Of a stretch of 64,000 nucleotides of DNA, positions 32,125 to 60,826 are shown piece after piece. The position numbers and the translations under genes were made by a program. Under the pieces are notes generated by a model. It had not been told where the DNA came from, made no database searches, and saw only the letters and a list, made by a program, of their open reading frames with translations. Position 1 is the first letter of the stretch. Every line of letters begins with the position of its first letter. The stretch is taken from positions 15,190,001-15,254,000 of the forward strand of contig CM120646.1 in the NCBI GenBank assembly GCA_051362555.1, written 5' to 3'. The stretch comes from Lingula anatina. Its lineage: Eukaryota; Animalia; Brachiopoda.

Positions 32125-33036
32125 ATGACAGCACAAATTGACGCTTACTTCCAAAGAAAGGTTCAGCACCGCCCCGCCACAGACGACCTACGGTGTTGGT
32201 GGGACAGGGTAATACAGTGGATTGGACCATTTTTGCTATTAGTGGGCTTCATAGCGATGGTACTCCACGTAAATGTAACAGTCAGGTGCTCAGTGAATGG
32301 CGACATCGACTTAAAAGCCCTCGGTACAAACGCTTCATCTTTGCAGTCCACGACACTACCCAATGCTGATTTTGTAAACGCACAATGCAGTTCCCAACTT
32401 GGATTTCCCACAAAAAGTTTTTCAGGAATTCTGATTGCTCTGGCGTTTATCCTAACTCTAATCGGTAATCTCTGGTTCCGTTTACCGATCACAAAATCTA
32501 AAATGAAAACTTTCAAATCAAGGACAGACGGGTCAATAAAGTCAAGTGGAACTCAAGAAGAAATACAACGTATGATATCAGATCCTGGTTCCACTCCTGT
32601 TCCTGATGCCTACGATGACTTAAAGAAACAACATGAAGAACTATGGCAATATAGACAGTGTCTAGAAAAGAAACGTTTTCTTGGCAGGTTTTACCTGGCC
32701 AAGAGTGTAGTCCAACTGGTGTTTTCCGTTTTGGCGCTAGTGTTCAGTGTGTTTTTTGCGGGTTGGCCATCAATGCACCAGGGGTTGTTTCACTGCACAT
32801 TGGCAAATGTAAGAGCTGCCTACGTTTGTACACGAACCCTTGGGACATGGTTCATTATTCTGAATGTCATTTACGCCATAGCTGCTGCTCTGTACATAGC
32901 TATATTAGTATTTGGTATTGTGTGGTACCTCAAAGAAGGCAGAAAGCCATACGGTCTGGACGAAAACGCAGACAAAATTACTGGCAGACAGAAGTCGACC
33001 AACAAGCCCCAGGAACAGGTAAAAGTGCTAATCTGA
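32125..33036 (+). CDS. LRRC8/pannexin-like 4-TM large-pore channel domain without LRRs (single exon; either stops at 33036 or splices at 33018)
   Basis: LRCWWDRV (cf. LRRC8 LKPWWDVF), DFVNAQC...KSFSGIL...NLWFRLPITKSKMKTF (cf. YVDAVC...KYFPYL...NFWFKFPRTSSKLEHF) and FHCTL...YVCTRTLG (cf. VDCTV...YRCAHPLA). Four hydrophobic segments and extracellular Cys pairs. Acceptor TTTTACAG at 32115. Confidence 0.88.
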   Translation: MTAQIDAYFQRKVQHRPATDDLRCWWDRVIQWIGPFLLLVGFIAMVLHVNVTVRCSVNGDIDLKALGTNASSLQSTTLPNADFVNAQCSSQLGFPTKSFSGILIALAFILTLIGNLWFRLPITKSKMKTFKSRTDGSIKSSGTQEEIQRMISDPGSTPVPDAYDDLKKQHEELWQYRQCLEKKRFLGRFYLAKSVVQLVFSVLALVFSVFFAGWPSMHQGLFHCTLANVRAAYVCTRTLGTWFIILNVIYAIAAALYIAILVFGIVWYLKEGRKPYGLDENADKITGRQKSTNKPQEQVKVLI

Positions 33037-33576
33037 CAATTCCATCATTTATTTATTTATCATACGACACAGTGTTAGAGTATAAAATCCTTGTCTATAG
33101 GGTTCACACAAAGCAGGTTTCATACAGTAGTATTTCTGTAATTTCAACATTATATAAAATTAATATTGTCCTTTGAGATTGTTGTGCGAGCTCATTTTTG
33201 TTTTCTGAATTGGAATCTAGGTTCAGCAAGTGTGTTTGGTTTCTTCCTTGTATATAGTAAGTTGTTTACATATGCAGAAAGTATAAATAATAATAATAAA
33301 TGCACGCCTTAAATTACAGGGAATACCGTTAGGGCTAGAGAAGTTGCCGGACCTTTTTATAACCCGTTTCATTCTTTCTCTCTGGTCATTTGCGTCGTTA
33401 TGGGCAGAAACAATAAGTTGCTATACCATTTCCTTAAATCCATGATAACTATAAACTTTCCTTTTTTTCTACTCTCAAAGCGGTTTTCCATCGTTCATCG
33501 ACCAAAATTATACTGGTGCCAACACAAAACAAAACTTCTAGCAAAAAAAAAAAGAAAAATGAACAAAAAAAATGAA

Positions 33577-59000: not shown

Positions 59001-60826
59001 TGACTGTCTTCCAAATTATCTTTGTTGATTCATTTCCTGTTGTTACTCTTGTTGTTCTTGTTGTGAAGTTAATTTTTATTGAATAATCACCATTATCGTT
59101 AATCACTTGGACACCAATGCTAACATATGTTAATTATTCTTTTCAAGCGCATATCATTCAGTCTAAAATTGATCAAAAAGGAAGGCAAAGTTTCCGAAGG
59201 TGCAGAAGCAGGACATGGCCATCTTAGCCTGGTGGTTGTCGTGAAGGGCGCAAGGGCCCTTCCTAACACTAGACGAACGAGTAAATTTGACACTTATTGT
59301 TCTGGGTAAGTAAGGCAGGATAATATTAGTATATGTATGTATCACCCTCAAAAGAGGCCAAACAAGTGTCCTCTACGAGGGGAATGTTTGTCTAACAACA
59401 TTCTGTATTAAGCAGCACTTACTTCAGATAATAAATGTATGAAGTATGTAGGCCAATGTGATATAGCGCACTTGTATTCAACAATCAACATTATTGTTTC
59501 TCTACATGTGATTGTACATAACGTCACTACTATGACGCAACACTTAACAACAATGATATCATAATATACATACCGAAATAAACTCTGAAGAGGCCCATAA
59601 GGGCTGAAATAATTGGAACATATACTATATACATTCTGCACAGGAAAGGAATTAAAAAAAGAATCACTTTCTTTCTCTCTGTGTTCTTACAATGAAGCAT
59701 GCTTGTAATTTGGTGACATGTGTCGGTGATCTTTTAATTTGATGAACTTATTTACCTCTGAGGAAATCACTTTTGAACATCAGATTTCTGAGGTTTGAGG
59801 GGATGCGTGCTGTAAAAATGGAGAACTGGTATAGTTATCTTCACCGGAATTATGTGCATTTTATGTACCATTAGCCAACTTATCTTTGGTATCTGGAATA
59901 AAATATATTTAATAAAGCTGACAGTTGTGAGCTAATCAAACATAGGTTAACAAATGAAAATAATCGTGAAGACACATTTTACAAATACGCCGAATTTCGC
60001 AACAAGCTTTAGTCAATGCAAAGGTTTGGAGAGCTATTAAGATATCTAACTGTATACGCTCAAGTGAGAACTACTTATTTGTCCAGAACTGTAGGTCTGA
60101 TTGTGATTCCATTTGAATCGTATCAGTTTCTTTTATGGCGGTGCTTATTATATGAAACATCTTGTACAACTGAAGTATGAATGGGACATTCATACATAAT
60201 GGCGATAAGTGGAATTTATTTCAATGGAGTAATTATTGACCAAACAGTTTTGAATTGATTTTATATATGCAAGTACGAACACGTTTTAATATTTGCAGAA
60301 TTGTCTACCCAAAAGGAAACAGAAAGGCACTTAAAACGAAGGCAATCACGGGACACAATCCTGCTTGGAGAGAGGAATTCGAATTTAGCGTTTCTTCTGT
60401 TGATTTTTTAAGAAAAAAATGTTTGCAACTGAACATTAAGGAATATTTTAGAGTTGGACAGGATGCTCCAGTCGGAGGAATCCGTCTTAACAGGGGAACA
60501 GGTTTGTATAATACATGTAAATTACCCTTTTTAATCCACATTATAATATTTTTCTATTTATGATTTTAATGATTGTCGCCATGCGAAATGTAAAGATTTT
60601 TTTACTTAACGAAAATATGCAATTCGTTTCTCATGTAATTAGTTCTTAGTTCCTTTCTGGGCGAAATAATGTTTTGAATTCTTATACTGTAGGGGAGTAC
60701 AATGGTAATTCAGTGGACTGGATGGACTCCACAGATCAGGAACAAGAAGTGTGGAGAAGATTATTAGACTCTACGCTTGGGGAAGAGATCACTGCCGATT
60801 TACCACTAAGACCTTTAAAAAGTTAG
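32125..60826 (+). CDS. Giant LRRC8-like TM - acidic linker - ~33x fibronectin type III - C2 domain protein (~3,600-3,700 aa, spliced model)
   Basis: Donor CAG|GTAAAA at 33018 (phase 0) joins acceptor TATAG|GTT at 33938 in frame. Linker exons 33938-33979, 34324-34374, 34700-34765, 35329-35379 and 35627-35747. Then phase-1 FN3 exons 36014-58378, a small exon 58878-58914 and C2 exons 59148-59305, 60299-60501 and 60693-60826 (TAG). Confidence 0.7.
33819..33829. promoter_or_regulatory. kB-like palindrome upstream of an in-frame ATG (33950)
   Basis: GGGGATACCCC. A second kB-like GGGAATACC lies near 33319. Confidence 0.3.
36014..58378 (+). CDS. Array of ~33 fibronectin type III exons (RPTP/tenascin-like repeats)
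   Basis: Repeated ~260-300 bp phase-1/1 exons, each with P.P...[LI].W..P.G....Y...L.PG..Y...V (e.g. 38533-38794, 41399-41662, 54982-55260, 57584-57850). Repeats 2 and 3 are split (36622-36882 + ~37296-37408; 37687-37937 + 38288-38384). Confidence 0.93.
50100..52000 (-). mobile_element. Decayed LINE (reverse transcriptase) fragments in the large FN3 intron
   Basis: Minus strand 51524-51709 reads KSLGQDEIPTWIVHDF...PILAIFNTSLREGHVP (cf. KSxGPDxIPxxxL...PLxxIFNxSLxxGxVP). It sits in a ~2.8-kb intron among otherwise short introns. Confidence 0.65.
53712..53860. mobile_element. Short MITE (CAG TSD), related to the palindromic element at ~1347-1513
   Basis: TIR TAACTCGAAAGCATCGC / GCGATGCTTTCGAGTTA. 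Shares TTATGGAATC[AG]AGACGCT with 1433-1450. Confidence 0.65.
56028..56119. repeat. (TA)n and (TG)n microsatellites
   Basis: Direct read. Confidence 0.9.
59148..60826 (+). CDS. C-terminal C2 domain resembling synaptotagmin-like protein (Slp4/5) C2B
   Basis: RISFSLK...LVVVVKGARAL...FDTYCSG|IVYPKG...KTKAITGHNPAWREEF...CLQLNI...VGGIRLNRGTG|EYNGNSVDWMDSTDQEQEVW (cf. Slp4 GGVRLGVGTGISNGEVVDWMDSTGEEVSLW). Confidence 0.85.

Follow-up and report, generated by a model that had tools for sequence, protein, structure and literature searches.

What defines LRRC8 proteins is the combination of a pore and leucine-rich repeats (LRRs) in one chain, and how these repeats sense swelling and gate the pore is debated (PMC12182595). 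A gene of the brachiopod Lingula anatina raises the question of whether the same type of pore can be joined to a different cytosolic sensor. The gene occupies positions 32125..60826 on the forward strand of a stretch of 64,000 nucleotides from contig CM120646.1, here called the window, which is intron-rich and has a GC content of 30-45%. Its first coding exon encodes an LRRC8-type domain with four transmembrane (TM) segments, which is very probably carried by the same transcript as 33 FN3 repeats and a terminal C2 domain. As the original prediction anticipated, this architecture appears to be undescribed: searches of the open-access literature gave no account of an LRRC8-FN3-C2 protein.

The membrane domain encoded by exon 1 scores 34.7 bits (cut-off 25, E 1.4e-8) with PF12534, the Pfam family for the pannexin-like TM part of LRRC8 proteins. 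All 26 PDB sequence matches at E <= 10 are LRRC8 chains (best E 2.5e-7), in agreement with the LRRC8-like label first given to the exon. The alignment to these chains consists of three colinear blocks that extend from before TM1 to after TM4. Hydropathy places the TM segments at residues ~28-57, 92-122, 188-217, and 238-271, aligned with the TM regions of LRRC8A and LRRC8C. An innexin/pannexin profile is absent both from the four Pfam families at E <= 1 and from the 26 PDB matches, and this absence, together with the uniformly LRRC8 matches, places the domain closer to LRRC8. Structure prediction was also tried. AlphaFold, run on the exon 1 sequence alone, gave a model of unusable quality (pLDDT 57, pTM 0.36). 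Foldseek with that model returned nothing at E <= 0.001, with LRRC8 in 4 of 11 weak rows, and VIA found generic helical hairpins only; neither is used as evidence.

The cysteines in the loops of LRRC8 proteins form disulfides. In the exon 1 domain, Cys55, Cys88, Cys224, and Cys235 sit in predicted extracellular loops; the last three align with cysteines of LRRC8A, and Cys55, just after TM1, lies outside the aligned blocks. Sequons are found at Asn50 and Asn69, in or at the first extracellular loop. This loop also holds the filter residue, which is R103 in LRRC8A and L105 in LRRC8C (PMC12182595, Table 1), and Leu78 aligns with the latter at the edge of an aligned block. The pore-related landmarks retained are an N-terminal WWD motif, a WF motif at the end of TM2, three aligned loop cysteines, and an LRRC8C-like filter residue. 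A conducting pore of six or seven subunits with a leucine filter, as in LRRC8C/E, is predicted with reasonable confidence. The same landmarks speak against the improbable alternative that the fused protein does not conduct, its LRRC8-type domain serving as an oligomeric membrane anchor for an FN3-C2 tether or spacer between two membranes. That alternative draws on the distance from LRRC8 seen in the best PDB E-value, on the dependence of vertebrate non-A subunits on LRRC8A for normal function, and on the sharp cut in activity that follows loss of the LRRs (PMC12182595).

Whether the membrane domain and the FN3 array belong to one product is the next question. A model of 45 exons (Table 1) gives one open frame of 3,699 codons with its sole stop at 60824-60826, and GT-AG ends are present at 44 of 44 introns. 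The exons were picked from the sequence, refined with the RefSeq proteins XP_013399668.1 and XP_013395068.1, and joined via their coordinates. Because the boundaries were chosen by the analyst, the open frame is weak evidence by itself. The original prediction had joined exon 1 to the FN3 frames in frame through a donor at 33018 and an acceptor at 33938 with compatible phases downstream, and that junction, with the acceptor in phase 0, is retained in the open frame; its exon list had the coordinates right and missed four further linker exons, 3 to 6. The six introns before exon 7 are all in phase with canonical ends. Scored with a splice-site matrix trained on 34 introns of the FN3 array, the donor CAG/GTAAAA at 33018 is the top GT in 32900-33100 and outscores 99.4% of 992 intronic GTs, and the acceptor TATAG/GTT at 33938 outscores 92% of 753 intronic AGs. 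At the other end of exon 1, an acceptor in the 91st percentile stands at 32116, 9 nt 5' of the ATG, with candidate donors at 31551 and 31761; given this acceptor, an untranslated first exon is likely upstream.

Independent gene models carry the junction further. Word-index homolog searches, limited in reach to close relatives and in length to 2,000 or 5,000 residues, found two RefSeq models of Lingula anatina, XP_013399668.1 ("tenascin-N-like", 56% identity) and XP_013395068.1 ("tenascin-X, partial", up to 97%). XP_013399668.1 is 76% identical to the last part of exon 1 in a 42-residue alignment. It breaks at the donor used here and runs from the end of TM4 through counterparts of exons 2, 3, 5, and 6 into FN3 unit 1, with no exon 4. 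The presence of exons of 42-51 nt in this predicted protein may point to transcript support. XP_013395068.1 is a single model that begins in exon 6, ends midway through exon 41, and is continuous across the 2.8-kb intron 32; it lacks exons 25-26 and handles exons 24-28 differently, with exon 24 partly matched. Both are incomplete and named for their FN3 content, with TM1-3, the C2 domain, and PF12534 absent from both. Residues 1180-1420 of XP_013399668.1 nearly duplicate its preceding three FN3 units, which would reflect either a recent duplication within the gene or an error of assembly. An exact look-up of three window translations found none, and a metagenome scan gave 155 pattern matches, of which 0 were confirmed.

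RNA reads bear on the 3' end. In run X7, 26 of 30 bins are covered, mostly over exons and the 3' end. Among seven modelled introns, the joints listed for X7 are exon 39 to 40 (5 reads), exon 41 to 42, and exon 44 to 45 (4 reads), and exon 38 to 39 occurs in 2 reads. The exon 41 to 42 joint, 58378>58877, is seen in 4 reads with 2 starts and has GT..AG ends; with this joint observed and exon 42 open and provided with a good donor, 233 nt away from the first C2 exon, the link to the C2 domain is likely. Three of seven comparable residue changes in the reads agree with XP_013395068.1. Within the intron that follows exon 42, a ~60-nt element at 58975-59033 reaches a depth above 200 per bin in all four runs with mixed loose ends, and is a dispersed repeat shared by many other transcripts. 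The open spliced frame, the joining of TM4 to FN3 at the same donor in XP_013399668.1, and the 3'-end reads together are the grounds on which the TM exon and the FN3-C2 part are very probably placed in one transcript.

Several observations weigh against this arrangement. Five AGs within 33030-34320 outscore the acceptor at 33938; the highest, at 33101, could terminate the transcript early. XP_013399668.1 lacks TM1-3 and ends inside the FN3 array, and XP_013395068.1 is partial, lacks the TM part, and starts at a methionine inside exon 6. The four RNA runs were mapped to 56140-62600 only, which spans introns 38-44. X7 alone covers the gene, at a depth of ~1-6, with almost none in X1, X3, and X4, and the joints of exons 40 to 41, 42 to 43, and 43 to 44 are unlisted among those of X7 at this depth. 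Mismatches to the window are numerous in the reads, which would accordingly derive from another allele, population, or paralog.

The 33101 acceptor and the start of XP_013395068.1 inside exon 6 are also what a pair of separate products would draw on, namely a protein with the TM domain only, terminated through the 33101 acceptor or by read-through at 33036, and a soluble FN3-C2 protein starting from exon 2 or 6. The 33101 acceptor is strong and is followed by an early stop and an AATAAA, so that its use could possibly yield a TM-only isoform. Against two products stand XP_013399668.1, where this donor connects TM4 with exon 2 and the tiny linker exons stay in frame, and the six phased, canonical introns upstream of the array; a minor TM-only isoform could moreover coexist with the fusion. 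Two products in place of a fusion are quite unlikely, and the single fused transcript is followed below.

Table 1. Features of the modelled gene, in window coordinates on the forward strand.
Feature	Position	Description
Exon 1, coding	32125..33018	894 nt from ATG at 32125; LRRC8/pannexin-like four-TM domain, aa 1-298
Candidate alternative last exon in intron 1	33101..33300	Strong acceptor; 9 codons to the stop; AATAAA at 33295
Exon 2	33938..33979	14 aa, phase 0-0, acidic linker; 8/14 identical in XP_013399668.1
Exon 3	34324..34374	17 aa, phase 0-0, linker; 13/17 identical in XP_013399668.1; weak acceptor
Exon 4	34700..34765	22 aa, phase 0-0, linker; in-frame skippable (optional); no counterpart in XP_013399668.1; weak donor
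Exon 5	35329..35379	17 aa, phase 0-0, linker; colinear with XP_013399668.1, 6/17 identical
Exon 6	35627..35747	40 aa, phase 0-1, best conserved linker exon; 30/40 identical in XP_013399668.1
Exons 7-41	36014..58378	33 FN3 repeats, aa 409-3522; unit 1 in exon 7; units 2 and 3 split over exons 8+9 and 10+11; units 4-33 in single phase 1-1 exons
Exons 7-15	36014-36343, 36621-36882, 37296-37408, 37687-37937, 38288-38384, 38533-38793, 39021-39308, 39866-40132, 40317-40583	
Exons 16-24	40788-41060, 41399-41662, 41799-42062, 42257-42520, 42743-43006, 43177-43434, 43654-43920, 44309-44596, 44688-44960	
Exons 25-33	45191-45457, 45644-45916, 46125-46409, 47281-47682, 47902-48168, 48457-48753, 49169-49414, 49595-49891, 52712-52996	
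Exons 34-41	53326-53595, 54503-54763, 54982-55260, 55732-56004, 56418-56690, 56941-57207, 57584-57850, 58097-58378	
Exon 42	58877..58914	Linker of 38 nt, phase 1-0, from FN3 unit 33 to C2
Exons 43-45	59148-59305, 60299-60501, 60693-60826	Single basic C2, 164 aa, then stop
Likely 3' UTR (untranslated region)	60827..62600	Run X7 depth 0.2-5.5 in all bins to the end of the examined stretch

In LRRC8 proteins the N- and C-termini are both cytosolic (PMC12182595), and everything after TM4 is accordingly predicted to be cytosolic in the fused protein. Hydropathy of the 3,699-residue model finds no hydrophobic segment after residue 271 (the maximum beyond residue 300 is 1.11), so that the array has neither signal peptide nor TM segment of its own, as had been claimed from the sequence at the outset. 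The cytosolic C-terminal tail proposed at the same time is supported by the LRRC8 homology, the spliced frame, and the joins in XP_013399668.1. If the TM exon is fused to the array, an LRRC8 topology with a cytosolic C-terminus is nearly certain.

The predicted number of about 33 FN3 repeats agrees with the model. In 29 of the 33 units the FN3 exon passes PF00041 (unit 2 being entered as its first exon only), and a profile made from these 29 gives the remaining four 14-22 bits, the best of 200 shuffles reaching 4.4. The repeats are dissimilar, with a mean identity of 21% and a maximum of 35%, and are, judged by their sequences, old. One of them, the 133-residue unit of exon 28, has a ~45-residue acidic insertion that also occurs in XP_013395068.1. 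The array contains 74 cysteines, with no alignment column holding 8 or more and no conserved column, and its sequons are at chance level (18 observed against 15.9 +/- 3.7 in shuffles, the sole calibration of the test). Chance-level sequons and the lack of a conserved cysteine column fit a cytosolic array.

The database names "tenascin-N-like" and "tenascin-X" imply instead that the FN3 array is extracellular. Tenascins and receptor protein tyrosine phosphatases (RPTPs) are defined by a signal peptide, together with EGF and fibrinogen domains in the former or a single TM segment and phosphatase in the latter. Pfam scans of the model found none of the EGF, fibrinogen, or phosphatase families, and with no hydrophobic segment after residue 271 the gene belongs to neither group. 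The best PDB matches of the array, obtained with that of XP_013395068.1, are indeed fibronectin and tenascin; PTPRD is 9th of 13, which does not single out the RPTP-like character once assigned to the repeats. An extracellular array would also have to do without a signal peptide or a fifth hydrophobic segment and would end, as this one does, in a C2 domain. The frame past the exon 41 donor does stay open for 107-108 hydrophobic codons (58379-58704), but no reads fall in bin 58516-58731. An extracellular location is therefore scarcely credible. A tail-anchored form made by the same read-through is not supported, given zero depth in that bin and no Pfam match above cut-off.

At the C-terminal end, exons 43-45 match PF00168 with 32.5 bits against a cut-off of 22 (E 1e-7). 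The only PDB match of this domain at E <= 0.01 is synaptotagmin-7 (E 0.004). The original prediction spoke of an Slp-type C2B; the C2 fold is borne out, and the Slp-C2B label is unconfirmed. It goes back to a presumed likeness of the last exon to the C2B of Slp, an exon that gave no match of its own. Three aspartates of synaptotagmin-7 act as Ca2+ ligands; they align to Glu, Phe, and Ala here, the first loop being outside the alignment. With these three replaced, the C2 domain is likely to lack Ca2+ ligands and to be Ca2+-independent. It is basic (27 Lys and Arg against 20 Asp and Glu), and Ca2+-independent lipid binding is predicted, with somewhat better than even confidence. Such C2 domains can dock on membranes with phosphatidylinositol 4,5-bisphosphate (PIP2) or phosphatidylserine (PS), as does the C2A of Slp4 (PMC7857503). 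Synaptotagmin-like proteins are defined by a Slp homology domain at the N-terminus and tandem C2A-C2B domains (PMC7857503), and here a single C2 follows the FN3 repeats, with neither of those features.

Between TM4 and exon 6 lies an acidic linker of 96 residues, 21 of which are Asp or Glu. Exon 6 itself is a candidate counterpart of the LRRC8 IL2 helices. The LRRs that would follow in an LRRC8 protein, 10-17 of them at the C-terminus, are missing, as predicted: Pfam scans found no LRR family in the model, and the LxxLxLxxN motif has no occurrence in its 3,699 residues and five isolated matches, without a cluster, across the six frames of the 64 kb.

The preferred reading, slightly favoured on balance, is an LRRC8-derived large-pore subunit whose cytosolic LRR sensor has been swapped for an FN3 rod ending in a lipid-binding C2 domain, and which could gate when the rod is displaced. 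Membrane tethering, mechanical gating, and ligand sensing had been put forward in the original prediction as possible functions. The TM domain would assemble in the LRRC8 manner into a pore of six or seven subunits. Each subunit would trail the acidic linker, a rod of 33 FN3 repeats, and the basic C2 domain into the cytosol. With 3.5-4 nm per FN3 repeat, the rod would be roughly 115-130 nm long. The C2 domain would grip anionic lipid of a second membrane without Ca2+, and the rod would replace the LRR domain as the gating lever, so that its displacement could open the pore. Gating of VRAC (volume-regulated anion channel) is accompanied by movement of the cytosolic LRR domains, and bulky C-terminal tags make VRAC constitutively active (PMC12182595). 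A cytosolic array of ankyrin repeats gives tethered gating in NompC (PMC8186909). By analogy with these channels, tether gating by a rod in the place of the LRRs may be proposed, though only tentatively. On the opposing side, a slack acidic linker would transmit force poorly, the role of exon 6 as IL2 is unsupported (no Pfam, PDB, or Atlas match, including an Atlas search with residues 15-160 of XP_013399668.1 that gave no usable match), and the word-index search found no homolog of the C2 exons among its five candidates.

The main rival to this working keeps the fusion and reads the protein as an immune sensor-gated pore. Fast-evolving FN3 repeats would form a cytosolic recognition surface, a foreign ligand or a protease cut in the acidic linker would open the pore, and the C2 domain would direct the end with the sensor to a membrane, for example that of a pathogen vacuole. 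The acidic composition of the linker would suit this role. At least two to three related copies exist (the window gene, XP_013399668.1, and XP_013395068.1), and identity to XP_013395068.1, 86-97% over exons 7-20, falls to 59-90% for 15 of the 18 exons 21-38 (43177-56690), a divergence along the array that reads as mosaic. Such patchiness could come from paralogy or gene conversion. Of the differences between reads and window, 40 of 101 rows contain 26 coding ones, 16 residue-changing and 10 silent; this 16:10 ratio is below the ~3:1 expected without selection by a rule of thumb, and comes from only those 26 rows.

The neighbouring gene also enters this argument. Head-to-head with the channel gene, 7.3 kb upstream, is a multi-exon gene at 24829-20017 on the reverse strand, which is likely a caspase-HEPN fusion. 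Its caspase exons match PF00656 (E 1.6e-22) and contain a QACQG motif, and its last exon matches HEPN_DZIP3 (PF18738, E 4.5e-23); the 226-residue first exon has no Pfam or PDB match. Caspases are the cutters of the pannexin 1 C-tail. Cleavage of this tail activates pannexin 1 (PMC11666100). The adjacency, however, is known from one locus. Copies, uneven divergence, and a caspase neighbour are not decisive, and an immune sensor is considered unlikely, though it is the foremost competitor of the displacement-gated tether.

In the broadest terms, the LRRC8 pore may be a modular effector coupled to varied cytosolic sensors. The brachiopod gene family would then bear six or seven C2-tipped rods of ~120 nm as a self-gating tether from membrane to membrane, with variable FN3 repeats and a caspase neighbour pointing to defence or cell death; as a whole this picture is doubtful. 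We infer that the gene encodes an LRRC8-type large-pore subunit, yet without LRRs it is not filed as LRRC8. A natural subunit with the same pore and an unrelated sensor would show that the fusion point is modular and would offer a ready natural chimera with which the contribution of the LRR domain could be studied. Pores of the LRRC8 type would also be placed in a protostome lineage, a channel with a very long FN3 array in the cytosol would be added as a rare case, and database entries that are at present called tenascin would be corrected. Reviews place LRRC8 in chordates plus Nematostella (PMC9399500, PMC12182595), and the one paper found with both LRRC8 and Lingula, PMC6391747, names them separately.

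The closest relatives found for the window gene are XP_013399668.1 and XP_013395068.1, which share its linker exons and FN3 order. Among characterized systems, LRRC8A-E of VRAC are the nearest: the four-TM pannexin-like domain is colinear with theirs, starting at the N-terminal WWD motif and continuing until TM4 ends, and three of the loop cysteines, the first-loop sequons, the LRRC8C/E-type filter leucine, and a repeat array after TM4 are held in common. In contrast to those proteins of about 800 residues, the window gene encodes 3,699, with 33 FN3 repeats and a C2 domain instead of LRRs, shorter loops, and, following TM4, four small exons that encode an acidic linker, in a likely protostome lineage. 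Pannexins and innexins belong to the same superfamily with the same topology according to reviews (PMC9399500, PMC12182595), whereas their profile has no match here. Slp4/granuphilin and the synaptotagmins resemble the gene in a C-terminal basic C2 domain, likely Ca2+-independent, but here there is one C2, the N-terminus has no Slp homology domain, and membership of the Slp C2B subtype is unconfirmed. NompC/TRPN offers a functional analogy only, as a channel in which force reaches the gate through a long array of cytosolic repeats (PMC8186909). Its pore is unrelated and its array is an ankyrin spring, whereas the Lingula protein would carry an FN3 rod with a predicted lipid anchor through its C2 domain.

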